Below, one piece after another: positions 2,924 through 63,657 of a stretch of DNA of 64,000 nucleotides. Positions within the stretch are counted from its first letter, which is position 1; the number at the start of each line of letters is the position of its first letter. This DNA is from Opitutia bacterium (GTDB lineage: Bacteria; Verrucomicrobiota; Verrucomicrobiia; Opitutales; Opitutaceae). The stretch spans positions 20,214 through 84,213 of the forward strand of contig CANJLB010000003.1 in the NCBI GenBank assembly GCA_947475065.1, in the 5' to 3' direction. The translations under genes and the position numbers were made by a program. The notes beneath the pieces were generated by a model. The model worked only from the letters and a program-made list of their open reading frames with translations, was not told the DNA's origin and did not search any database.

Positions 2924-4036
2924 TTACAACAACACGAGATCGTTGCGGTGGACGACTTCGAGACGCTTGCGGCCGGGGTAGAGCGGATTGAGCTGGCCGC
3001 TGTTTTTGCCTGCGATGGTGGCAATCTCACCGTCGGCAAACGCCGTCTCGCCGCGCGCGAAGACCTTGCCGTCGGGGCCGGCGATGTCCACAACGTCGCC
3101 GGCGGCGAAGGTGCCCGCGCAGCCGGTCACGCCCACGGGCAGCAGGCTGCGTCCCTGCTCGCGCAGGACGGGGATGGCGGCGGCGTTGACGCGGATCGTG
3201 CCGGCCGGACGCTGGTAATAGGCCAGCCAGCGTTTGCGCGATTCCAACGGCAGGCCGCTGGGCACGAAGAAGGTGCCAGGATTGCGCCCGCTGAAAATCC
3301 TGGCGAGGATGTCGGGCTCCGCGCCGCTGGCGATGAACACGCCGCAGCCGGCCCGGGTGGCAAGGCGTGCGGCGGAAATTTTCGTCGCCATGCCCCCGAC
3401 GGCGGTTTCGCTGGCAGTGCCGCCGGCCATCGCCTCGATGGCGGGGGTGATTTTCTCCACGACGGGAATGATCGCGCCAGTGCCTTTCAGATCCATCAGG
3501 CCAGAAGCGGTGGAAAGGATGACGAGGTGCTGGGCGGCGACGAGGCTGGCGACCATCGCGGAGAGCGTGTCGTTGTCACCGACCTTGATCTCAGCGGCGC
3601 TCACCGTGTCGTTTTCGTTGATAATCGGAATGGCACCGTAGCCGATGATCTCGGCTAGCGCGGCCTTGACGCCTAGGTGTCTGGCGCGCTCGCGCAGGTC
3701 GTCGTGGGTGAGGAGCACCTGCGCGACGGTCAGGCCGTGCGGCTCGAAGCCGCGCTGCCACGTCTGCATGAGCAGGGACTGGCCGATCGCGGCGCAGGCC
3801 TGTTTCTGCGCCAGGGCCGAGGGACGTTTTTTCAGGCCGAGCCGGCCCATGCCTAGCCCGACCGCGCCGGAGGAAACGACGATGACCTCGGAGCCGGCGC
3901 GGCGCAACGCGGCGAGTTCGGCGCACACGGCGGCGATGCGCGCCGTGTCGAGCTGGCCGATGCCCGAGGTGAGCACACCCGTGCCGAGCTTGATGACGAC
4001 GCGTCGTGGGGCGGTGGCTGAATTAGTTCTCGACAC
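2924..4036 (-). CDS. proB: glutamate 5-kinase with C-terminal PUA domain
   Basis: RVVIKLGTGVL... ATP-binding N-terminus, amino-acid kinase fold, and a C-terminal PUA-like region (GEIATIAGKNSG...). The ORF-track start at 4240 adds an implausible P/S-rich 68-aa extension, so I chose the in-frame GTG at 4036 (370 aa). The start is uncertain. Confidence 0.8.
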   Translation of the reverse strand: MSRTNSATAPRRVVIKLGTGVLTSGIGQLDTARIAAVCAELAALRRAGSEVIVVSSGAVGLGMGRLGLKKRPSALAQKQACAAIGQSLLMQTWQRGFEPHGLTVAQVLLTHDDLRERARHLGVKAALAEIIGYGAIPIINENDTVSAAEIKVGDNDTLSAMVASLVAAQHLVILSTASGLMDLKGTGAIIPVVEKITPAIEAMAGGTASETAVGGMATKISAARLATRAGCGVFIASGAEPDILARIFSGRNPGTFFVPSGLPLESRKRWLAYYQRPAGTIRVNAAAIPVLREQGRSLLPVGVTGCAGTFAAGDVVDIAGPDGKVFARGETAFADGEIATIAGKNSGQLNPLYPGRKRLEVVHRNDLVLL

Positions 4037-8688: not shown

Positions 8689-8762
8689 TGGTGCGCCGAG
8701 AGGGAATCGAACCCTCCTCTCAAGCTTGGGAAGCTCACGTTCTACCGATGAACTACCGGCGC
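8689..8762 (-). tRNA. tRNA-Gly (anticodon CCC)
   Basis: The rc reads GCGCCGGTAGTTCATCGGTAGAACGTGAGCTTCCCAAGCTTGAGAGGAGGGTTCGATTCCCTCTCGGCGCACCA. It has a 7-bp acceptor stem, D and T arms (GGTTCGATTCC), anticodon loop TTCCCAA and an encoded CCA. Confidence 0.9.
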
Positions 8763-8825: not shown

Positions 8826-9419
8826 TTACACATACTCCCGCCGCGCCTCCAGCGCGCTTTTTAGCGTCACCGGGTCGGCGTAGAGCACGCCGCCACCGCT
8901 GGGCAGGCCGAAACCGATCCGCGAGACCTTTACCCTGCCGCCGGGCGGCAGGTGCTGTGTCACATAGTGGCAGGTCGCCTCGCCTTCAACGTCGTTGCCC
9001 AGCGCGAGGATCAGCTCACGCACGTCGCCCCCCGCAACGCGCGCCAGCAGCGAGGCGAGATTGAGCTGCTCCGGGCCGACGCCGTGGATGGGCGAGAGCC
9101 GGCCGTGGAGGACATGATAGGCGCCGCGATAGGCGCCCGCCCGCTCGACGGCCACGAGGTCGGGCACCTGCTCGACCACGCACACGACCGAGTGTTCGCG
9201 CCGTTCGTCCGCACAAATCGCGCAGAGCTCGGCTTCGGCCAGATGACCGCAGCGCGCGCAGCGCCGCACGCTTTGCGCCGCCGCCTCCAGCGCTGCGACG
9301 AGCGCGGGCAGCTTGCCGGGTTTCTCCACGAGCAGGTGCAAGGCGATTCGCTCCGCCGAGCGGTAGCCGAGGCCGGGCAGCTGCTTGAGTTGCTGCTGGA
9401 GCTGCTCGAAGGAGGACAT
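8826..9419 (-). CDS. recR: recombination protein RecR
   Basis: HhH motif (LPGLGYRSAERIALHLL), C4 zinc finger (CARCGHLAEAELCAICAD) and Toprim domain. 197 aa. Confidence 0.95.
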   Translation of the reverse strand: MSSFEQLQQQLKQLPGLGYRSAERIALHLLVEKPGKLPALVAALEAAAQSVRRCARCGHLAEAELCAICADERREHSVVCVVEQVPDLVAVERAGAYRGAYHVLHGRLSPIHGVGPEQLNLASLLARVAGGDVRELILALGNDVEGEATCHYVTQHLPPGGRVKVSRIGFGLPSGGGVLYADPVTLKSALEARREYV

Positions 9420-30642: not shown

Positions 30643-31051
30643 TCACGCCTGGCGTTCACAGGAATTATCGTGCGCATCTGACCTGAAAAAAGCGAGTTGC
30701 GAAAACTAGGGTGTCGGGATGCTTGATCGCCGGAGCCGTGTCCCCATGTTCGCTTCCGTCTGAGTTCTTTCACCGCCTAAGGCGACGCCGCTTCCTCGGC
30801 GTCAACACGGGGGAACCAATATCCGCTGCGCTCTCTCGCGGCGGACGGGGCGAACGGACGCAGGCGACTGCGCCCAAGGTCACTTCCTAGGACCAAGCCC
30901 GTCAGCTAACCTCGTCGGCAATGGGAAGGGTGATCCACTAGGGCTCCCGCCTCGGCGGGATGTCCCCACGGTCGCTCCAACGCAATCGCACCGTCGTGTG
31001 CATACGGGAATACCGTGTGTGCCGCCGGGGCACTTCACGGAGATTAATCCT

Positions 31052-40602: not shown

Positions 40603-40723
40603 TAGTGGTATAGTTTTGGTCGGTGGTAGGTTGCGCGCTCGCCGCGCAACTCCGGCGACAGAGGGCAAACGTGGCGTGACGAGCACGCCACCTACCCCGG
40701 AAAATTCAAACTGTACCACTACC
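40603..40723. mobile_element. BIME/MITE-like element (REP-A + REP-B palindromes) flanked by 10-bp direct repeat GGTCGTTGGG
   Basis: The target-site-like duplication lies at 40593-40602 and 40724-40733. Terminal inverted repeats tagtggtatagtttt / aaactgtaccacta. Internal palindromes gtaggttgcgcgctcgccgcgcaac and gtggcgtgacgagcacgccacctac are the same units that flank the RAYT at 60 kb. Confidence 0.65.
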
Positions 40724-43457: not shown

Positions 43458-43562
43458 CGGTGGTAGGTTGCGCGCTCGCCGCGCAACTCGGGCGACAGAG
43501 GGCAAACGTGGCGTGACGAGCACGCCACCTACCCCGGAAAATTCAAACTGTGCCACCACCGG
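43458..43562. mobile_element. BIME/MITE-like element, second copy (~95% identical core to 40621-40723)
   Basis: cggtggtaggttgcgcgctcgccgcgcaactcgggcgacagagggcaaacgtggcgtgacgagcacgccacctaccccggaaaattcaaactgtgccaccaccgg. Confidence 0.65.
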
Positions 43563-52008: not shown

Positions 52009-53010
52009 TCAGTTTTCACGGCCCTGCCGCAGGCGGTCGAAATAGACGGCCACGATGATCACGAGGCCGATGATGATCTCCTGAAAATAATTCGGCCACT
52101 CCATCGCCTGCGTGCCGGTGCGGAGCACCGCCATAAGCAGCGCGCCGATCATTGAGCCGAGCACCGTGCCCACCCCGCCGTTCAGGCTCGCGCCGCCCAC
52201 GATCACCGCCGCGATGATGTCGAGCTCCAGCCCGACGGCCGCCGTCGGGTCGCCGAGGCTCAAGCGCGAGAGCTGAAACAGCCCGGCGAGGCCAAAGAGG
52301 CACCCCGCCAGCCCATAGATCAGGATTTTCAGCCGCACGGTGGGCAGGCCGCAGAGGCGGGCGGTCTGCTCGTTGGAGCCGATGGCGAAGACGTGCCGGC
52401 CAAACACCGTGCGGCACAGCAGCAGCGCGACGAGCAGGGCGAGCGCCAGCACCACCCACACACCCACCGGCAGGGCCATGCCGTCCGGGTCGGCCGTGGT
52501 CATCCAATCGTCAACCGGCGTGTGCCAGTCCGCGTTGGCGGCCTTTTGCAGCGGGGTCGGGTAGTTGACGGTCTGGTTTTCCGCGAGCCACTTGGCCGTG
52601 CCACGCACGATGCCGAGCGTGCCGAGCGTGACGATGAACGGCACCATCCGCAGCCCGGCGATGAGCGTGCCGTTGAGCAGGCCGATGAGCGCGCCGCCGG
52701 CCACCATCGCCAGGACCGCCACGCCCGCCGGCCAGTCGTGCTGGAGCAGCCGCGCGCCGATGACGCTGGTGAGCGCGATGGTCGAGCCGACCGACAGGTC
52801 AATGCCGCCGCTCACGATGATCATGGTCATGCCCAGCGCGCCGACCGCCACGATGACCGTCTGCGTGAAAATGATCTTGAAGTTGTGGTAGGTGAAAAAA
52901 TTCCCGTGGTGGGTCACGAGCGGGACCGCGATGGAAAAAAACGCGATCACGAGGATCAGCCCGATGAACGGGCCGCCCTTGAGGAGGATTCTTTTCAAGC
53001 TGGCTTTCAT
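52009..53010 (-). CDS. sugar ABC transporter permease (RbsC/XylH-like)
   Basis: Started at MKASLKRILLKGGPFIGL. ~10 TM helices. C-terminal GGASLNGGVGTVLGSMIGALLMAVL...FDRLRQ. Confidence 0.9.
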   Translation of the reverse strand: MKASLKRILLKGGPFIGLILVIAFFSIAVPLVTHHGNFFTYHNFKIIFTQTVIVAVGALGMTMIIVSGGIDLSVGSTIALTSVIGARLLQHDWPAGVAVLAMVAGGALIGLLNGTLIAGLRMVPFIVTLGTLGIVRGTAKWLAENQTVNYPTPLQKAANADWHTPVDDWMTTADPDGMALPVGVWVVLALALLVALLLCRTVFGRHVFAIGSNEQTARLCGLPTVRLKILIYGLAGCLFGLAGLFQLSRLSLGDPTAAVGLELDIIAAVIVGGASLNGGVGTVLGSMIGALLMAVLRTGTQAMEWPNYFQEIIIGLVIIVAVYFDRLRQGREN

Positions 53011-53020
53011 GGGCAAGGGC

Positions 53021-54526
53021 TCACTCGCCGCCGGTGGCGACGCGCATGACACCGGCCTCGGTCCACTCCGCGCGCGGGCGCACGGCGGCCAGCTCGCCCC
53101 GGCACATCACGCCGATGGTGTCGCACAGCCCGAGCAGCTCGGGCAGGTAGGAGCTGACGACGACGACGGCCTTGCCCGACGCGGCGAGGTCGCCGATGAG
53201 CTGGTAAATCTGGGCCTTGCTCCCCACGTCAATGCCGCGCGTCGGCTCGTCGAGCAGGAAAATTTTCGCGGGGTGCTCCAGCAGGCGCGCGAAGGCGACC
53301 TTCTGCTGGTTGCCGCCGGAGAGCTCGCCGATGGGTTGCGCAGCGTCGCGGCATTTCACCCGCAGCTCGTCCACCCAGCGCTGCGCGGTCGCGCGCTGGC
53401 GCCCGCCGCTGATGAAGCCGAAGCGGCCGAAGCGATCCTGTTTCGTGAGCGTCAGGTTGTCGGCGATGGACTGCGAAAGCATCAGCCCCTCCTCCTTGCG
53501 GTTCTCGCTCAGAAAGCCGACGCCCTCCGTCCAACGCGCGCGCGGCGTGGAACGGCCGGCGGGCGCCCCGACGACGCAGACCTCGCCAGCGGCCAGTTCG
53601 TCCAACGAGAAAATCGCGCGCAGCAAATCCGTGCGGCCCGCGCCGATCAGCCCGCCGAGGCCGAAAATCTCGCCCGCCCGCACCTGCAAGGTGGCGCACC
53701 TGAGGCGCGGCGGGCTGACGGCGGCCCTGACCTCCAGCACGACCGCGCCGGTGGCGTGCGCGGCGCGCGGGTAGAGGTCTTTCACCTCGCGGCCGGTCAT
53801 CAGCGTGACGAGGTGGTCGAGCGTCGCGCCCTTCATCTCGCCGGAGCCGACGGTCTCGCCGTCCTTGAGCACGGTGTAGCGGTCGGCGATCCGGCGGCAT
53901 TCCTCCAGAAAATGGCTGATGTAGATGACGCCGACGCCCTGCGCGCGCAGGCGGCCAATGGTGGCGAAGAGCTTTTCGGTGTCGGCCTGCGTGAGGCTGC
54001 TCGTCGGCTCGTCCATGATGAGAATTTTGGGCTGCTTGAGGAGCGCGCGGGCGATCTCGATGACCTGCTGCTCCGCGATGGAAAATGCTCCCGCCGGGCG
54101 GCCGAGGTCGAGCGCCTCGTGGCCGAGCTGCGCAAGCGCGGCGCGGGCGCGCTCGCGGGAGGCCGCACGGTTGATCCAGCCGGCACGGGCGGACTCGTCG
54201 CCGAGCAGGATGTTCTCCTGCGCGCTGAGGTGCAGCGCGAGGTTGAGCTCCTGGTAGATCATGGCGACGCCCTTGAGCCGGGCATCGTGCGGGTTCTCCG
54301 GCAGGTAGGGCCGGCCGGCGAGCTCCATCGAGCCGGCGTCGGCCCGGTGCGCGCCGCTGAGGATTTTCATCAGCGTGCTCTTGCCCGCGCCGTTCTCGCC
54401 GATGAGCGCGTGAACCTCGCCGGGCGCGATGCCGAAGGAAACCCCGCGCAGCGCGTGGGTGGCGCCGAAGCTCTTGCGGATGCCCGCCAGCCGGAGGCTC
54501 GCGGCGGTGGTGAGAGGGTTTGTCAT
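53021..54526 (-). CDS. sugar ABC transporter ATP-binding protein with two NBDs (RbsA/XylG-like)
   Basis: Two Walker A motifs (GENGAGKST; GLIGAGRT), two ABC signatures (LSGGNQQKV etc.), 501 aa. Its ATG start codon lies inside a 33-bp repeat copy. Confidence 0.9.
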   Translation of the reverse strand: MTNPLTTAASLRLAGIRKSFGATHALRGVSFGIAPGEVHALIGENGAGKSTLMKILSGAHRADAGSMELAGRPYLPENPHDARLKGVAMIYQELNLALHLSAQENILLGDESARAGWINRAASRERARAALAQLGHEALDLGRPAGAFSIAEQQVIEIARALLKQPKILIMDEPTSSLTQADTEKLFATIGRLRAQGVGVIYISHFLEECRRIADRYTVLKDGETVGSGEMKGATLDHLVTLMTGREVKDLYPRAAHATGAVVLEVRAAVSPPRLRCATLQVRAGEIFGLGGLIGAGRTDLLRAIFSLDELAAGEVCVVGAPAGRSTPRARWTEGVGFLSENRKEEGLMLSQSIADNLTLTKQDRFGRFGFISGGRQRATAQRWVDELRVKCRDAAQPIGELSGGNQQKVAFARLLEHPAKIFLLDEPTRGIDVGSKAQIYQLIGDLAASGKAVVVVSSYLPELLGLCDTIGVMCRGELAAVRPRAEWTEAGVMRVATGGE

Positions 54527-54553
54527 TCTGAGCGCAGCGAAGAATCCAGTGCG
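54521..54553. repeat. 33-bp repeat copy 1 (tgtcattctgagcgcagcgaagaatccagtgcg)
   Basis: Overlaps both the GIY-YIG stop/C-terminal 10 codons and the ABC ATPase start codon. It is identical to copy 2 at 54893-54925. Confidence 0.8.
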
Positions 54554-54870
54554 GTGTTGGCATCCACTGAAACATCATGCCACCCCTCGGCCAAGTCTTT
54601 CCAAAGGGGATTTTCCTGCTGGATCAGAGCGATCTTCCGATCACGCCGCCAACCCTTCAGCTCGGTTTCACGGCGGATGGCGTTGGTCACATCGCGGAAC
54701 TCCTCAAAATAGACCAGCCGGTGAAGGCCGTAGCGCTTGGCAAAACCATCCTTGGCCCCGGTCTTGTGCTGCCAAGTGCGTCGTTCGAGAGAATTGGTGA
54801 CACCGATGTAAAGCGTGCCGTGCGGCTTGTTGGACAGGATATAGACCCAGTAGCTGCGGTAGGTGGACAT
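54523..54870 (-). CDS. GIY-YIG nuclease family protein (small, standalone)
   Basis: YILSNKPHGTLYIGVTNSLERRTWQH...GWRRDRKIAL is the GIY-YIG catalytic module. 115 aa. It is inserted between the ABC substrate-binding and ATPase genes. Confidence 0.85.
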   Translation of the reverse strand: MSTYRSYWVYILSNKPHGTLYIGVTNSLERRTWQHKTGAKDGFAKRYGLHRLVYFEEFRDVTNAIRRETELKGWRRDRKIALIQQENPLWKDLAEGWHDVSVDANTALDSSLRSE

Positions 54871-54892
54871 CTTGAAAGGGCGGAAAAAGGCA

Positions 54893-54977
54893 TGTCATTC
54901 TGAGCGCAGCGAAGAATCCAGTGCGAATCTCGATGGCGGACATCCAACTGGATTCTTCGCTGCGCTCAGAATGACAA
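54893..54977. repeat. 33-bp repeat copy 2 plus inverted copy 3 forming a ~30-bp-stem hairpin upstream of GIY-YIG
   Basis: tgtcattctgagcgcagcgaagaatccagtgcg (54893-54925), a 22-nt loop, then ctggattcttcgctgcgctcagaatgaca (54948-54977), the perfect reverse complement. Confidence 0.8.
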
Positions 54978-55039
54978 ACTGGGGGGCGTGCGCTCGGATT
55001 ACGCAGGCATTTCGGCTCTCCCAAACGGGCGCGCGCGGG

Positions 55040-56050
55040 TCATTTCAGGTATTTGTCGAGCGGCGGGTGGACGATCTCGGCCATCTCCGGGGCGTCGAAA
55101 TTTGCCTTGGTCACGAAGCCGACGCCGGTGTCAATGCGCGCCTCGACTTTCTGGCCCTTGATCGCGGCGACGGCGTTCTTCACGCCGAGGTAGCCCATGT
55201 TCATCGGGTTCTGGACGACGAAGCCCTGCACCTCGCCTTTCTGGAGGCCGTCGTTGAGCGTCTCGCTGGAGTCGAAGGCGACGAACGTCAGCTTGCCGGC
55301 GAGCTTGGCGTCGCGCAGGGCGAGCAGCATGCCGGAGGCGGCGGACTCGTTGCAGGCGAAGATGCCGTTGACCTGGGCGCCAAACTTGGTGAGCAGGTTT
55401 TCCGAGGCGGTCTTGGCCGAGTCGCGGGTCGCGCCGGCGTGCTGGTCGGTGGAGAGCAGCTTGATGGCAGGGAAGTCCTTCGCCATGACTTCGAGGAAGC
55501 CTTCCTCGCGCTCCTCGGTGCTGGCCGAGCCGACGAGAAAGCGGAGCATGATGACGTTGCCCTTGCCGCCGAGAATCTTGCCCAGCTCGCGGGCGGCGAT
55601 GCGGCCGCCCTCCTTGTTGTCGGTGGCGATGAAGCTAGTGAGCGCCTTCGACTGGAGGCCGGAGTCAATGACGATGACGGGGATCTTGCCCTTCACGGCG
55701 GTCTCGACCGGGGCGACGAGCGCCTTGCTGTCGAGCGGGGCGACGACGATGGCGTCAACGTGCTGGCCGATGAAGTTTTCGACGACCTGGATCTGCTGCT
55801 CGCGGTCGTCCTCCCGGAGCGGGCCTTTCCAGAGGACGTTGACCTTGATGCCCTGCGCGGCGAGCTCCAACTGGGCCTTCATGGCGCCGGCGTGGATGGA
55901 TTTCCAGAACTCGTGCGTGGTGCCTTTCGGGATGACGGCGATCTGGAGCACGCCGGCAGCGGGGGCGGCACCGGCGGCGGGCTGGTCGCTGGGAGCTTTG
56001 GAGCAAGCGCTGAGCGCGAGCAAGGTGAGGGCGGCAAAGAGGCGTTTCAT
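55040..56050 (-). CDS. sugar ABC transporter substrate-binding lipoprotein (RbsB-like, periplasmic binding protein type I)
   Basis: Started at MKRLFAALTLLALSACS (lipobox). PBP-I fold motifs (IAVIPKGTTHEFW, VDAIVVAPLD). Confidence 0.9.
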   Translation of the reverse strand: MKRLFAALTLLALSACSKAPSDQPAAGAAPAAGVLQIAVIPKGTTHEFWKSIHAGAMKAQLELAAQGIKVNVLWKGPLREDDREQQIQVVENFIGQHVDAIVVAPLDSKALVAPVETAVKGKIPVIVIDSGLQSKALTSFIATDNKEGGRIAARELGKILGGKGNVIMLRFLVGSASTEEREEGFLEVMAKDFPAIKLLSTDQHAGATRDSAKTASENLLTKFGAQVNGIFACNESAASGMLLALRDAKLAGKLTFVAFDSSETLNDGLQKGEVQGFVVQNPMNMGYLGVKNAVAAIKGQKVEARIDTGVGFVTKANFDAPEMAEIVHPPLDKYLK

Positions 56051-57780: not shown

Positions 57781-57859
57781 CGGGTAATCGCAGAGGGAGA
57801 ATGGCAGAGGGGAATCGTGTTCCGAGCGCAGCGACCAACTGACAATCGGGCAACTGATA

Positions 57860-57967
57860 ATCGGGAATCTTGAAATTGGACATGAGCGGCCTTCGCCGCG
57901 CGGAGAGGGATTTTCAGTTTCTCGATGCCCGATCAGGCTGATGTCGCTTCGCTCGGTACAGTTTTCG
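57860..57967. repeat. intergenic repeat family B, copy B1
   Basis: aatcgggaatcttgaaattgg (57860-57880) and ttttcagtttctcgatgcccgatcaggctgatgtcgcttcgctcggtacagttttcg (57911-57967). It shares the ggctgatgtcg...ctcggtacag core with family A. Confidence 0.5.
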
Positions 57968-57989: not shown

Positions 57990-58832
57990 TCAGGCGAGCC
58001 GATAGACGCGGAGTGCGTTGCGTCGGAAGATGGCGTCCTGGTCGGCGGCAGAAAGATGGGAGACGAGCCCGCGCGCTGTCGCGAGCCAGCGTGGATAGGG
58101 GCTGGCGAGCTTGGCAACCGGCCAGTCGCCGCCGAAAAGCAGACGGCCGGGGCCGAAAGCGGCGAGGGCGTGATCCACGTAAGGTTTGAGGTCGGCAGGT
58201 TGCCACGCGACGTGGTCCGCCTCGGTGATGAGTCCGGAGAGCTTGCAGTCCACGTTGGGCAGCGCGGCCAGCTCGCTCAGATGCGCACGCCACGGGTCGA
58301 GCAGCCTGCCGCGGATGCCGGGCTTGCCAAAGTGGTCCAGGACAAAGCGCGTGCCCGGGCAGGCCCGCACGAGGCGGACGGCCGCCGACATCTGATGGTG
58401 AAAGCAACACAGGTCAAAACTCAGCCCCGCCGCGCCGACCGCCTGCACTCCGGCGATAAATTCGGGCCGGGCACAGAAATCCGGGTCCGGCTCATGCTGG
58501 ATGAGGTGGCGCACGCCGCGCACCAGCGGATGGTGCCTCAGTTGGGCGAGATAGTCCGCCGTTGTAGCGCCCTCGTTCATCATGCACTTGGCGACGATGC
58601 CGGCAATGCGCGGCTCGGCGGCGGCCAGCCGCTCCACCCATTTCGCCTCGTCGAGCCACGGTGCGCCGCACTCGACGAAGACGATCTTTTCGGGGAATTG
58701 GCCACCCGTCTCCACGCGCAGCTCATCGGGCGTGTGCGGACCGGCGATGGCCGGCACTTCCGCCAACCAAGGATAGGGCAGCGTACGCTGATCCCAGAAG
58801 TGAACGTGTGAATCTACGAAGGAGAAGCTCAT
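57990..58832 (-). CDS. amidohydrolase-2 family protein (lactonase-like)
   Basis: FVDSHVHFWD N-terminal metal-binding motif, TIM-barrel amidohydrolase_2 features. 280 aa. Confidence 0.85.
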   Translation of the reverse strand: MSFSFVDSHVHFWDQRTLPYPWLAEVPAIAGPHTPDELRVETGGQFPEKIVFVECGAPWLDEAKWVERLAAAEPRIAGIVAKCMMNEGATTADYLAQLRHHPLVRGVRHLIQHEPDPDFCARPEFIAGVQAVGAAGLSFDLCCFHHQMSAAVRLVRACPGTRFVLDHFGKPGIRGRLLDPWRAHLSELAALPNVDCKLSGLITEADHVAWQPADLKPYVDHALAAFGPGRLLFGGDWPVAKLASPYPRWLATARGLVSHLSAADQDAIFRRNALRVYRLA

Positions 58833-58867
58833 CGGAAGGTGGGGAATCGTGAAATCAGAAAACTGAA

Positions 58868-58980
58868 AATCGGGAATCTTAAAATTGGCGACGGGCTATC
58901 TGGCGCGGGGTTGCAGGGAACTTTTCAGTTTAACGATGCCCGATTTGGCTGATGTCGCTTCGCTCGGAACAGTTTGCAAG
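58868..58980. repeat. intergenic repeat family B, copy B2
   Basis: aatcgggaatcttaaaattgg (58868-58888) and ttttcagtttaacgatgcccgatttggctgatgtcgcttcgctcggaacagtttgcaag (58922-58980). Confidence 0.5.
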
Positions 58981-58988
58981 TTTCCGTT

Positions 58989-59783
58989 TCAGGTCGAGGC
59001 CTTCGTCGTGCAGGCACGGTCGAGATGCACATAGCCGCCGTCCACATGGAGGATCTGGCCGGTGGTGTGCGATGAACGGGGCGAAGCGACAAACACCACG
59101 GTGTCGGCTATCTCCTCGGCCGTGGTCATGCGGCGTTCCAGCGGAATCGTGGCTTTGATCGCGTCGAGCGAGGCGGCGGGATCGGGGCGTTTCTCAAGCC
59201 AGCGAGAGTAGAGCGGTGTCATCACCTCGGCGGGCAGCACGCAGTTCACGCGGATGCCGTATTGGGCGAGGTCGAGCGCCCATTCGCGGGTCAGGCCGTT
59301 CATCGCGCCCTTGGCGGCCACATAGCCGCTGGTGCCGCCCTGGCCGGTGACGGAGCACTTGGAGCCGATGTTGATGATGGTGCCCTGGCTGGCGATGAGC
59401 GCGTCGAGCGCGGCCTGCACGAGCACAAAGCACTGGATGATGTTTGTTTCGAGCGACGCGCGGAAATCCGCCACCGGCGCGCGCAGGCCCACGCCGTCGT
59501 TCACGCCGGCGTTGTTCACCAGGCAGTCAATTCGGCCGTGCTTCGCCCACACGGCGGCGACGGCGGCGCGCACGGCGGCCTCGTCAGTCATCTCGCAATG
59601 GAAGGTGTCGGCCTTGCGGCCCGAGGCGGAAATCTCGCCCACGAGCACGGCAGCCTCCTCGCGGTTACGGCCAAAAATGCAGACGGTCGCGCCTTCGGCG
59701 GCAAACGCGCGCGTGATGGCCGCGCCGATACCCTTCGCGCCACCGGTGACGATAACGACCTTGTGATCGAGTTCGAGTTTCAT
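58989..59783 (-). CDS. SDR family oxidoreductase
   Basis: VVIVTGGAKGIGAAI (TGxxxGxG), NNAG, catalytic YVAAK. 264 aa. Confidence 0.9.
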   Translation of the reverse strand: MKLELDHKVVIVTGGAKGIGAAITRAFAAEGATVCIFGRNREEAAVLVGEISASGRKADTFHCEMTDEAAVRAAVAAVWAKHGRIDCLVNNAGVNDGVGLRAPVADFRASLETNIIQCFVLVQAALDALIASQGTIINIGSKCSVTGQGGTSGYVAAKGAMNGLTREWALDLAQYGIRVNCVLPAEVMTPLYSRWLEKRPDPAASLDAIKATIPLERRMTTAEEIADTVVFVASPRSSHTTGQILHVDGGYVHLDRACTTKAST

Positions 59784-59890
59784 TGCGGGAAAGTGGGGCC
59801 ACGCACACGGCCCGTGGCAAGCCGGATGACTGCCGTGTGATCAGTCCCGCGTGGCAACATGCGGAGAGCGCAACCGACGCGGAATTCCCG

Positions 59891-60035
59891 GAGTTGCGCG
59901 ACGAACGCGCAACCTACACGGATCGGACGTAGGTGGCGTGTTTGCCGCGCCTCGTTTGTCCTGGCGTAGGTTGCGCGCTGGTCGCGCAACGTTTTTCCCC
60001 AGGCCCCGGAGTTGCGCGACGAGCGCGCAACCTAC
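59891..60035. repeat. REP array (three palindromic units in alternating orientation) 10 bp downstream of the RAYT stop
   Basis: gagttgcgcgacgaacgcgcaacctac (59891-59917), gtaggttgcgcgctggtcgcgcaac (59966-59990), gagttgcgcgacgagcgcgcaacctac (60009-60035). Confidence 0.8.
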
Positions 60036-60044
60036 ACGGACCAA

Positions 60045-60563
60045 TCACCCCAGCCACTCGGGGAATGGCTGGCCGTTGTCGGTCAGGTCGCGTAACCACT
60101 CCCAGTCTTCGTCGCGGCAGTAAAAATATGGCCACGTTTCCCCCTCCGCCACCAGCCCTGCCCGGGGCGGGTTCAGCCAGAGGTAGCGGATCACGCTCTC
60201 CGCCGAATCCTCCGGGCGGAGCCGATGGTCGTAGAAATTCTCCTGCCAGCCGGCGCCCTGCGGGCGCAGGAGCGCCTGCGTCTTGGTCTTGAGCCGCGCC
60301 ATGGCCTGCGAGAGCGTGAGCCGTGCGCCCAGCGTGAAAAACAGGTGCGCGTGGTCGGGCATCACGGTCAGGCAGCGCAGCGCCCACGCGCCGTCGGCGG
60401 TCAGGCGGTGCGTCTCGGCGAGCAGAGCGGGGGCGATGCCGGGGACGAGCACGGGCAGGCGCGGTTGAACGCAGACCGTCACGAAATAGTCCGCGTGCGG
60501 CACAGAGGCGCGGCCCCGGCGCAAGGCGTTGGGTCCAGTATTCCGTTTCGGCGGCGGGGCCAT
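60045..60563 (-). mobile_element. REP-associated tyrosine transposase (RAYT, IS200/IS605 TnpA-like)
   Basis: 172 aa from the internal Met. HxH motif in MPDHAHLFF and catalytic Tyr in ENFYDHRL. It is flanked on both sides by REP palindrome arrays, the defining RAYT context. Confidence 0.8.
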
Positions 60564-60575
60564 GCGGGGATTGTG

Positions 60576-60702
60576 GTAGGTTGCGCGCTCGTCGCGCAAC
60601 GTTTGGTTGTCCGGCGTAGCAACAAGGTGGCGTGCTCGTCGCGCCACGGTTGTCATCCGCCGACCCCTGATCCCTGAGTTGCGCGACGAGCGCGCAACCT
60701 AC
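60576..60702. repeat. REP array upstream of the RAYT (REP-A, REP-B variant, REP-A inverted)
   Basis: gtaggttgcgcgctcgtcgcgcaac (60576-60600), gtggcgtgctcgtcgcgccac (60627-60647), gagttgcgcgacgagcgcgcaacctac (60676-60702). The first two lie within the ORF-track N-terminal extension of the RAYT ORF. Confidence 0.8.
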
Positions 60703-60725
60703 TCCGGAGTCCGGGCCAGTTCAGC

Positions 60726-61742
60726 TCACGGCACCTCGATCATGGCTTTCAGCACGGCGGAGTTGCCAGCGATGTCCCTTGGAAAAACGACGGGCGTGTC
60801 GGCGAGCTTGAAGCGGTGGGTGATCCACGGGCGGGTGTCCACCTCCCCGTCCTCGACGAGACGGATGACCTCACGAAATGTGGCCGGCAGGGCGTTGCGG
60901 CTGCCCATGACGGTCAGCTCGCGACGGTGGAAGTTGGGGTCGTTGAACGTCACATCGCCCTGGAAGAGACCGACGAAGACAATACGCCCGCCGTGCGCAG
61001 GCAGGTCGAAGCAGCCCATCATCGAGCCGGGGTTGCCCGTGGCATCAATCACGCAGGTTGGCAGATCGCCGGCGCCAATGCGCCTCAGCTCGTCCGCCGC
61101 GCCGGGGCCGGGCCTGAGGGTGTGCTGAATGCCAAGCTGTTTCCGGCAAAAGTCGAGGCGCGTGTCACTCACGTCCATCACCGCGAGTTTCGCACCGGAG
61201 ACTTTGGCAAACTGGATCACGCTGAGCCCGATCGGACCGGCGCCGATCACGAGGATAAAATCGTCCTTGGTGGGCGCGGCGCGCTCCACGGCGTGGGCGC
61301 CGATGCCGAGCGTCTCGACCAGCGCGAGCTGCTCGTAGTCGAGCTTGGCGGACGTGTGCAGCTTATGGGTGGGGATGCGCAGAAACGGCGCCATGCCGCC
61401 GTCAATGTGGACGCCCAGCACCTGCAGCGAAGTGCAGCAGTTTGGCTTGTTGCGGCGGCAGGCAATACAGGTGCCGCAGTTCAGATAGGGCTCGACCGCG
61501 CAGCGGTCGCCGGCCTGCAGGCCGCAAGGCTTGTCGCCGGGATCGAGCACCTCGACTCCAAGCTCATGGCCGAGGACACGTGGGTAGGTGAAGAAAGGTT
61601 GCCTGCCGGCGAAAGCGTGAAGGTCAGTGCCACAGATACCGATGCGGTGAACGCGCACGAGGGCGCTGCCCGACGTGGCGGTGGGCATCGGGTGGTCAGC
61701 GGTGACAAACAAACCAGGATGTTCCAGGACGATGGTGAGCAT
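60726..61742 (-). CDS. zinc-dependent alcohol dehydrogenase (MDR family, sugar/polyol dehydrogenase-like)
   Basis: GHELGVEV (catalytic Zn), structural-Zn Cys cluster CGTCIACRRNKPNCC, GAGPIGL Rossmann motif. 338 aa. Confidence 0.9.
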   Translation of the reverse strand: MLTIVLEHPGLFVTADHPMPTATSGSALVRVHRIGICGTDLHAFAGRQPFFTYPRVLGHELGVEVLDPGDKPCGLQAGDRCAVEPYLNCGTCIACRRNKPNCCTSLQVLGVHIDGGMAPFLRIPTHKLHTSAKLDYEQLALVETLGIGAHAVERAAPTKDDFILVIGAGPIGLSVIQFAKVSGAKLAVMDVSDTRLDFCRKQLGIQHTLRPGPGAADELRRIGAGDLPTCVIDATGNPGSMMGCFDLPAHGGRIVFVGLFQGDVTFNDPNFHRRELTVMGSRNALPATFREVIRLVEDGEVDTRPWITHRFKLADTPVVFPRDIAGNSAVLKAMIEVP

Positions 61743-61809
61743 AGTCAGACAGTAGAAGCCGCCATTCAGGGTAAGAAGAGCAAGCTCAATGGTGTTTAGC
61801 CGGGCAATC

Positions 61810-61950
61810 CGGAAGGCTTCGCGGCTTCTGTTACCGAGGCCACAAGGCCGACATCAGCCATTCGTCAGAACAGAACATTTAAGAAGGCTTCCTCCTAAAA
61901 ACATCCGTCTGCCTCCGCTTTCATCTCTAATTTTCAGCTCTCAGCGTGGT
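61810..61950. repeat. intergenic repeat family A, copy 3 (reverse orientation)
   Basis: ccgaggccacaaggccgacatcagccattc (61834-61863) is the rc of gaatggctgatgtcggccttgtggcctcgg. aattttcagctctcagcg (~61929-61946) is the rc of cgctgagagctgaaaatt. Confidence 0.5.
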
Positions 61951-62184
61951 GTCTGGCCAGTTGCAGCATGATTTCCATCAACCATGGCAAGGGGCGGCAA
62001 GAATCGGCAATAATATCCATCCTCAAGCTCGATCTTTCCATTGGAATGGCTTTGCGTTGCTGTCCAAATTCTCGCCCCTTTATCCATTTACCAGTCCGCT
62101 GAGCTTATCCGCAAAGCATTGGGGAAAAATTGCTGGTGAACTCAACCCTTACCCTTTAGTCATTCGGCTTCACCTGTTCACCCC

Positions 62185-63657
62185 ATGCACCCCCACGACC
62201 ACGATTGTTCCGGCCACGATCATCGCCATGAGCCGTTGCTGAACCGCCGCAGTTTCATCGGCCTTGGGTTGGGCGGGCTCGCCCACCTCAGTGGATTTGG
62301 CAGTCTGCCCTCCGCACTTGCAGCCGCCGCCGGGCCAGCCCGCAGGGGCCGTGCGAAACAGGTGCTTGTGCTCTTTGAGCAGGGCGGTGTGTCGCAGATG
62401 GACAGCTGGGATCCGAAACCCGACGCCCCCACGGAGCACCGCAGCCCGTTCAAGCCAATCTCCACGGTGGTGCCAGGCATGCAGTTCACCGAGCTGCTGA
62501 CGAAAACTTCCAAGGTCGCGGACCGGCTGACCGTCGTCCGCTGCATGACCCAGCCCACCCCAGGCATCGGCGACTCGCACCCGAAGGGCTCGCAATACAT
62601 CTTCTCGGGCGAGGCGCCCGGCGGCCCCGTCGAGCGGCCCGACATCAGCTCCATCGTGGCCTCAATCATGGGCACGCCGGCCGAGTATCTGCCGAGCAAC
62701 ATCCTCGTGCCCGGCACGAGCGAGCAGGCGTCGACCTCGCGGGTCGGGTTTTTGCCGCCGGGCTACGCGGTGTTCAAAACCGGCGGCAATCTTGCCGACC
62801 CGAACTGGCAGGTGCCCAACCTCGGCCTCATGGCGGACATCGCCCCCGAGCGTTTCCAACAACGGCGCGATTTGCTGAGCAACCTTGATGTCGGCTTCGC
62901 CCACGGGGGCGACACGAAGGATGTCTCCGCCATGCAGTCCCTGCTCCAGCAGGCGGAGAACATGCTCACCAACCCACAGACACGCGCGGCCTTTGACCTG
63001 GGCCGCGAGTCGGAGGCCACGCGCACGCGCTACGGCACCGGCCACCGCGGCCAGTGCTATCTGCTCGGGCGGAAGCTTATCGAGTCCGGCGTGCGCTTTG
63101 TGACGGTGGACGTGCGCGAGCCGCGCCAGTCGTGGGTGGACGGACAGAGCAAATTTTACGATGGCGGCTCCAACATGAACTGGGATCACCACGACGACAT
63201 CTACGCCGACGGCACCACCAACAATGTCCCCGGCAGCGGGCCGGGTTCCAACCGCTGGGGCATCCACACCTGGCCGATGATGGGCTCGACCGACCAGGCG
63301 TTCTCCGCGCTCATCGAGGACATGCACCAGCGCGGGCTGCTGGACGAGACACTGGTGTGCTTCGTCACCGAGTTTGGCCGCACGCCGAAGATCAACAACC
63401 GCCGGGGCCGCGACCACTGGACGCACTCCTTCAGCTTCGCCTTCGCGGGGGCGGGCGTGCCGGGCGGGCAGATCGTCGGATCGACCGACCGCGATGGCGG
63501 CTACATCACCAGCTCGATGGCCTACACAATCGAGGACTACGCCGCGACCATCTACGAGAAGCTCGGCATTGATCGCGCCAAGCCGTTGCACAATGCGGCC
63601 GGACGACCGATCATCCTTACGCCAAAGGGCCGGCCGATCCCGGAGCTTTTCGTCTGA
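62185..63657 (+). CDS. DUF1501 family protein with Tat signal (second copy)
   Basis: NRRSFIGLGLGGLAHL twin-arginine signal, then conserved DUF1501 blocks (RGRDHWTHSFSFAFAGAGVPGG). 490 aa. Confidence 0.85.
   Translation: MHPHDHDCSGHDHRHEPLLNRRSFIGLGLGGLAHLSGFGSLPSALAAAAGPARRGRAKQVLVLFEQGGVSQMDSWDPKPDAPTEHRSPFKPISTVVPGMQFTELLTKTSKVADRLTVVRCMTQPTPGIGDSHPKGSQYIFSGEAPGGPVERPDISSIVASIMGTPAEYLPSNILVPGTSEQASTSRVGFLPPGYAVFKTGGNLADPNWQVPNLGLMADIAPERFQQRRDLLSNLDVGFAHGGDTKDVSAMQSLLQQAENMLTNPQTRAAFDLGRESEATRTRYGTGHRGQCYLLGRKLIESGVRFVTVDVREPRQSWVDGQSKFYDGGSNMNWDHHDDIYADGTTNNVPGSGPGSNRWGIHTWPMMGSTDQAFSALIEDMHQRGLLDETLVCFVTEFGRTPKINNRRGRDHWTHSFSFAFAGAGVPGGQIVGSTDRDGGYITSSMAYTIEDYAATIYEKLGIDRAKPLHNAAGRPIILTPKGRPIPELFV

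Follow-up and report, generated by a model that had tools for sequence, protein, structure and literature searches.

A probable REPtron in the spacer between two sugar-operon genes of an Opitutaceae bacterium

Introduction

The REPtron of E. coli K-12 (rayT/yafM, BIME-2; 4ER8; Ton-Hoang 2012, Messing 2012) consists of a gene for an enzyme of the HUH and Y1 fold that is bracketed by inverted 5'-GTAG REPs of two sequence types, with further REPs dispersed as doublets elsewhere. In the encoded enzyme, TnpAREP, Y115 has been identified as the catalytic tyrosine and N119 as a metal ligand (Messing et al.; 4ER8; PMC3479197). The motifs that have been described as specific to RAYTs are an N-terminal Thr, a WQ pair, and the sequence NP(L/V)(R/K)xG beside the Tyr (Nunvar 2010; Quentin 2018). 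A comparable arrangement is found in the RAYT/REPIN systems of Pseudomonas fluorescens SBW25, where REP doublets forming long hairpins flank the RAYT gene and REPINs are dispersed without a transposase. These systems were reportedly set out by Bertels and Rainey in 2011 and by Bertels in 2017, in the latter case as Groups 2/3.

GTAG repeats are also found in the PVC superphylum. Opitutus terrae is highly enriched in them and carries several families, and REPtrons are present in most of the GTAG-bearing species (Di Nocera et al. 2013, PMC3733652). The O. terrae families GTAG-17 to GTAG-20 of the same study belong to the Opitutaceae, as does the host of the locus described here, and they resemble the repeats of this locus in being GTAG-tagged and GC-rich, in occurring as HH and TT dimers, and in the presence of several families side by side.

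The present study concerns a RAYT gene with flanking and dispersed REPs in a 64-kb stretch of DNA, referred to as the window. Homologue annotations and genome matches place the host in the Verrucomicrobia, family Opitutaceae, in agreement with the PVC-group origin proposed in an earlier note on this DNA. The same note regarded REP biology as poorly described in that group, which was an overstatement, as GTAG repeats had already been reported to be abundant in O. terrae in 2013 (PMC3733652). The system is consequently not new for the phylum, and the locus is a clear but ordinary example of the well-known REPtron. What it adds is a RAYT/REP family with clear boundaries, found in uncultured Opitutaceae of fresh water and soil.

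Operon setting and extent of the RAYT gene

The RAYT gene lies between the genes of a Zn-dependent alcohol dehydrogenase (ADH) and an SDR of the L-fucose dehydrogenase type, as stated in the earlier note, and is co-oriented with both (Table 1). The SDR gene is followed by genes for a lactonase-type amidohydrolase, an MR/MLE dehydratase, a sugar-binding protein and an ABC transporter, all on the minus strand. The amidohydrolase matched the L-fucono-1,5-lactonase model only weakly, 181.6 bits being below the cut-off of 400. The operon is of a catabolic type for L-fucose. The E. coli REPtron differs from the present one both in its host and in that the present unit sits between co-oriented operon genes.

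Table 1. Positions of the RAYT gene, the neighbouring operon genes and the REPs in the window
Feature	Position	Strand	Remarks
Dispersed REP doublet 1 (type A + B)	40626..40695		heads outward, 20-nt spacer; extragenic
Dispersed REP doublet 2 (type A + B)	43463..43532		heads outward; between convergent genes
SDR, L-fucose dehydrogenase type	58989..59783	(-)	NF052481, 356.6 bits, cut-off 300; downstream neighbour
Lineage-specific segment (REPs + RAYT + REPs)	59857..60712 (approximate)	(-)	from blastn and alignment against L014
Possible degenerate half-REP	about 59864-59880		beyond the outermost SDR-side REP
REP 1, type A	59893..59917	(-)	outermost clear copy on the SDR side; head-to-head with REP 2
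REP 2, type B variant (GTAGGTGGCGTG...CGCGCCTC)	59929..59953	(+)	partly degenerate
REP 3, type A	59966..59990	(+)	tail-to-tail doublet with REP 4, REPIN-like, 20-nt spacer
REP 4, type A, inner	60011..60035	(-)	9 nt downstream of the RAYT stop; GTAG head towards the gene
RAYT CDS (TnpAREP-type HUH/Y1 nuclease)	60045..60563	(-)	172 aa + stop
REP 5, type A, inner	60576..60600	(+)	12 nt upstream of the RAYT ATG; GTAG head towards the gene
REP 6, type B variant	60623..60647	(+)	head degenerated, CAAG for GTAG
REP 7, type A	60678..60702	(-)	outermost copy on the ADH side; perfect 25-bp inverted pair with REP 5
Zn-dependent alcohol dehydrogenase (ADH)	60726..61742	(-)	first operon gene; upstream neighbour of the REPtron

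The coding sequence starts with the ATG at 60561-60563 and ends with the TGA at 60045-60047 (minus strand). The coordinates and the length of 172 aa proposed earlier were thus correct, as was the spacing of some 10 bp at the RAYT stop, which amounts to 9 nt. In public assemblies the gene is lengthened to 203 aa, with an ATG at 60656, and runs through the REPs. This start was rejected, as the extra 31 residues are translated REP and are lacking in the homologues. The 70-odd RAYT homologues are 164-175 aa long and start at the same position as the 172-aa form. An exact look-up with the 172-aa product returned no match because the public gene calls take the 203-aa start, and the 203-aa form was indeed matched. 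At least 24 contigs, drawn from several samples, encode the identical RAYT protein. No second RAYT copy was seen within the 64-kb window, and no tnpB-like ORF adjoins the gene.

Rfam models gave no match in the RAYT/REP region. The only Rfam matches in the window were a c-di-AMP (ydaO/yuaA) riboswitch at 30764-30935 (+), with 52.4 bits, and a tRNA at 8692-8762 (-), with 61.3 bits.

The RAYT protein

The earlier note had taken the gene product for an HxH/Y1 transposase of the RAYT type and proposed a search with the Y1_Tnp profile. The protein passed the Pfam model PF01797 Y1_Tnp (30.8 bits, cut-off 23) as well as, by a narrow margin, the NCBIfam RAYT equivalog NF047646 REP_Tyr_transpos (82.2 bits, cut-off 80), whereas the IS200 equivalog NF033573 failed (25.2 bits, cut-off 55). 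The first PDB match obtained by phmmer was 4ER8, E. coli TnpAREP. In the resulting alignment Y127 corresponds to Y115 and N131 to N119, and H71-A72-H73 falls on the HUH motif. The positions of the catalytic Tyr and the metal-binding Asn are thereby equivalent in the two proteins, albeit at an overall identity of only about 20%, and the metal ligand H123 of the E. coli enzyme aligns with Ala135.

In an alignment of 32 homologues, 37-75% identical, the HUH histidines, Y127, N131, T29 and W106-Q107 are invariant. As the HUH, Tyr and Asn residues are retained throughout a family of this divergence, purifying selection is implied. The RAYT-specific motifs are represented by T29, by W106-Q107 and by Y127-LWL-N131-P-P-R-A-G, for which the family consensus is NPYRAG. 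The third position of the NPxRxG motif is accordingly P or Y instead of the published L/V.

An AF2 model built on the 32-homologue alignment reached a mean pLDDT of 89.5. Comparison of this model with the PDB using Foldseek returned REP-bound E. coli TnpAREP (4ER8) as the top match, with a TM score of 0.67-0.70, and the IS200/IS605 TnpAs followed behind it at a TM score of about 0.48. The HUH and Y1 fold is therefore common to the RAYT of the window and that of the E. coli REPtron, and the IS200-like fold expected by the earlier note was recovered.

The REPs bracketing the gene

Seven 25-nt palindromes in alternating orientation bracket the RAYT gene, four on the SDR side and three on the ADH side (Table 1), confirming the earlier description of palindrome arrays in both orientations. 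Each consists of a 5' GTAG head, an 8-bp GC-rich stem and a 5-nt loop, and the GTAG head is intact on six of the seven. Two sequence types are present, as in the E. coli REPtron, where the gene is likewise bracketed by inverted 5'-GTAG REPs. Type A is GTAGGTTGCGCGCTCGTCGCGCAAC, and type B is a variant with the sequence GTAGGTGGCGTG...CGCGCCTC or GTAGGTGGCGTG...CGCGCCAC. The two inner REPs are 100% complementary to each other and, together with five further copies, provide the gene with the two or more inverted REPs that characterize a RAYT locus. On the ADH side, the outer REP lies 23 nt from the ADH stop (60726). The core palindrome occurs seven times in the window and not once in 100 shuffles, and a looser REP pattern gives 14 matches in the window where 0.13 would be expected.

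When folded as single-stranded DNA, the doublet of REPs 3 and 4 forms a long hairpin (-33.3 kcal/mol, z = -6.2). The corresponding values for the doublet of REPs 5 and 7 are -49.2 kcal/mol and z = -6.6. The doublets flanking the RAYT gene thus fold into stems of at least 25 bp, as is expected of REPINs and as seen in the long-hairpin doublets that flank the RAYT of SBW25. The stem of the individual REP is a perfect 8-bp helix, without the bulge that the E. coli enzyme needs. With regard to the O. terrae families, the REP of the window (GTAGGTTGCGCG.., translated VGCALVAQ) is absent among the O. terrae entries in the available part of the supplements of PMC3733652. The GTAG families given there encode other peptides, e.g. 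VGPALAAG.

Insertion history and relatives

The nearest genome found was the MAG L014, whose ADH and SDR proteins are 93% and 91% identical, respectively, to those of the window. In L014 the two genes are separated by 97 bp, with neither a REP nor a RAYT gene, and the ends of this spacer align with the window on either side of a block of about 850 bp. Since L014 has just 97 bp between ADH and SDR, the block is lineage-specific. An orthologous operon free of the insertion, which the earlier note had suggested looking for, is thereby available. Insertion in the lineage of the window would be the simpler reading of this difference, a clean deletion of the REP-RAYT-REP unit in L014 being less simple. 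In more distant Opitutaceae, the AraC regulator and ADH are divergent from an SDR-lactonase pair, and this differing gene order is uninformative on gain versus loss. A search for the REP family of the window at orthologous loci of relatives, some 330 kb in total, gave no match, a result that applies to those loci only.

All contigs of the same species that span the site carry the element, in the same position. No presence/absence polymorphism was seen within the species among contigs identified by exact ADH and SDR proteins, many of which break at the repeats, and the element appears fixed within the species.

RAYT homologues with 75%, 61% and 56% identity were found at three unrelated loci in other Opitutaceae. 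The bracket of the window, CAACCTAC-[gene]-GTAGGTTG, recurs around the homologues in L007, L009 and L011, with stems that are slightly different but compensated. The relatives thereby show the close linkage and joint evolution of RAYTs and REPs that are known from Proteobacteria. The stem variants with their compensatory changes, in combination with the 'empty site' of the sister genome, make this a usable comparative case for REPtron gain and loss outside Proteobacteria. The intra-operon position and the 'empty site' are useful in this respect, but modestly so, and leave the general knowledge of RAYTs unchanged.

Two of the related loci showed further peculiarities. In L011 (5980-6530), which encodes the 56%-identical homologue, the CTAC of the upstream REP directly abuts the ATG and the GTAG of the downstream REP contains the TAG stop codon, which is the tightest possible REP-gene-REP packing. 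In L008, L009 and L010 (6517-7130), tandem units of about 100 nt, each made up of a REP A and a REP B, follow the RAYT homologue P0016. The length of this array varies by strain, the next gene being located 610, 312 or 511 nt after the RAYT gene, which points to recent gain or loss of units.

The comparison with relatives also bears on whether the locus could be an autonomous IS200-like IS, a mobile REP-gene-REP unit that entered the operon by recent transposition, instead of an immobile, domesticated RAYT. IS200/IS605 TnpAs belong to the same superfamily and have the same fold, and recognition of ssDNA hairpins would be a further common feature. Absence of the unit from the operon of the closest relative would fit such an element, as would the occurrence of homologues at four loci in four lineages, always within the same tight REP bracket, and the L011 stop codon within GTAG. 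This reading is nevertheless distinctly unlikely. The IS200 model falls far short of its cut-off while the RAYT model passes, the unit has no tnpB, and no multiple gene copies were seen within the 64 kb. Moreover, the flanking hairpins belong to a dispersed repeat family and are mutually inverted, as in REPtrons, and a RAYT homologue accompanies the REPs on only 1 of 120 REP-bearing contigs among the matches listed (see below). In the same-species contigs spanning the site the element is always found at one position, without insertion polymorphism, and the 56-75% identity of the homologues fits old paralogues or orthologues equally well as movement.

Dispersal and covariation of the REPs

Two REP doublets of type A + B are located about 17-19 kb from the RAYT gene (Table 1), their extragenic position being judged by ORF inspection. 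The two are near-identical over about 105 nt, a common 3' tail included. REPs are similarly dispersed as doublets away from the gene in E. coli, and REPINs without a transposase in SBW25. However, unlike the REPINs of SBW25, the dispersed doublets of the window are A/B heterodimers, which as ssDNA form two small separate hairpins rather than one long one. An exact-pattern scan detected the REP pattern on at least 120 JGI metagenome contigs, dozens of them from one sample, and a RAYT homologue was present on one of the 120 REP-bearing contigs listed. REP-like palindromes away from the gene, on which the earlier note had made its reading depend, are thus present both in the window and in metagenomes. 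Any size given for the REP population of this genome is an extrapolation from 64 kb.

Covariation of the stem was assessed on REP instances that were anchored on the head and the 5' arm only, to avoid circularity. This yielded 298 instances with 81 distinct sequences, of which the alignment and the counts comprise the 75 that share the 5-nt-loop register. Stem position 7/23 is T-A in 30 and G-C in 29 of the 75 sequences, and positions 9/21 and 11/19 vary among C-G, T-A and A-T. Two-sided changes were observed in 57 cells as compared to 22.4 +/- 3.6 after shuffling, and none of 500 shuffles reached 57. Similarly, 87.5% of the stem cells pair, versus 24-60% when the partner columns were slid. 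The 8-bp REP stem covaries, i.e. the 3' arm follows the 5' arm.

Because the inner REPs are 100% complementary and the dispersed doublets near-identical, recent copying of the REPs is suggested. These features also weigh against an inactive relic, in which the RAYT would be dead and the REP arrays kept as RNA-level or structural elements of the operon, such as mRNA stabilisers, attenuators or protein-binding sites. In favour of a relic, REPs in operons are classic RNA-stability elements (Higgins 1982, as cited in PMC2817692), the E. coli enzyme shows auto-inhibition and weak activity (PMC3479197), and the metal ligand H123 is not kept in the RAYT of the window. However, the ORF is intact, the identical protein recurs on the 24 or more contigs mentioned above, and the HUH, Tyr and Asn residues are invariant across a family of 37-75% identity, all of which renders this reading very improbable. 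That the ORF and the palindromes arose by chance in GC-rich intergenic DNA can be dismissed as next to impossible. High-GC DNA does give many spurious ORFs and hairpins, but the profile, structure and homologue evidence, together with the repeat statistics, excludes this origin.

Proposed mode of action

Family membership, intact catalytic residues, repeat architecture, dispersal, stem covariation and absence from the closest relative were all observed directly, and every testable feature that defines a RAYT or a REPtron at the level of sequence was found. The element is with high probability a REPtron, that is, a RAYT gene enclosed by cognate REP hairpins with GTAG heads. In analogy with E. 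coli TnpAREP, the RAYT protein would bind single-stranded DNA at the REP hairpin together with the 5' GTAG and cut nearby via Y127, the metal being held by H71, H73 and N131. We infer that such catalytic activity would mobilise the REPs, cleavage making or moving REP/REPIN copies round the chromosome, with the RAYT gene itself staying at one copy.

Given that the gene has the same orientation as the operon and that a promoter scan of 58800-62300 detected no sigma-70-like promoter, transcription of the RAYT by read-through from the operon promoter is most likely. The REP hairpins would in that case sit within the polycistronic mRNA. REPs in mRNA modulate stability and translation, and co-transcription may in this way have an effect on the operon. 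In addition, the REP located 12 nt before the ATG could limit translation of the RAYT. The REPs are terminator-like on the plus strand only, i.e. antisense to the operon. Read-through transcription has been proposed for REPtrons generally (Di Nocera et al. 2013, PMC3733652), and the placement in an operon, although a small twist, fits this published idea of RAYT expression.

A more far-reaching version would hold that the unit moved en bloc into the transcribed operon after the split from the nearest relative, and that RAYT expression and REPIN mobilisation are now coupled to fucose via read-through. We consider this version unlikely. If true, it would mean that a 'domesticated' RAYT is still able to relocate itself.

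Other changes in the same operon

A gene of the GIY-YIG family is located at 54523-54870 (-), between the genes of the sugar-binding protein and the ABC ATPase (region 54522-54975). It encodes a single-domain protein of 115 aa (PF01541, 54 bits). A 28-nt hairpin repeat, GTCATTCTGAGCGCAGCGAAGAATCCAG, flanks the gene in three perfect copies, at 54522-54549, 54894-54921 and 54948-54975. Two of the copies form a hairpin just upstream of the GIY-YIG gene, and the third overlaps its stop codon and the start codon of the ATPase. The GIY-YIG gene is absent from L014 and represents a second lineage-specific insertion in the operon. In other Opitutaceae contigs the GTCATTCTGAGCGCAGCGAAGAATCCAG repeat occurs without the GIY-YIG gene, namely five times in L125 and also in L019 and L182. 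The architecture of gene and repeats matches that of the Ssn (SsnA/NTS-SRM) family of site-specific ssDNA nucleases (Nat Commun 2025, PMC11893778). On the unlikely, more far-reaching version considered above, the acquisition of such an Ssn-like gene in the operon that also holds the RAYT would hint that transcribed intercistronic spacers are preferred landing sites for elements based on ssDNA nucleases.

Repeats of a third family, some 130 nt in length, occur at 57829-57964 and 58841-58975, in the SDR-lactonase and lactonase-dehydratase spacers. The family comprises a 54-nt core that is 91% identical between copies and AT-rich AATCGGGAATCTT motifs. L014 holds related copies in its SBP-ATPase spacer and at 3490-3525 and 8899-8934. 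The core, C(C/T)GAGCG(A/C)AGCGA, is similar to the repeat that accompanies the GIY-YIG gene.

Upstream of the operon, L014 and most of the related Opitutaceae loci carry a gene for an AraC-family regulator directly before ADH. No counterpart is present in the whole 64-kb window, and comparison of window positions 61743-62184 with L014 243-1127 revealed the replacement of about 1.1 kb by about 150 nt, apparently with loss of the regulator local to the operon.

Finally, the transport half of the operon (52009-56050) was compared with L014 5998-9414. The binding protein is about 51% identical at the protein level and the module 65-70% identical at the DNA level, as compared to 85-92% DNA identity for the catabolic genes. 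Since the transport half is far less alike than the catabolic genes, this pattern suggests that the transporter module (binding protein, ABC ATPase and permease) was swapped.
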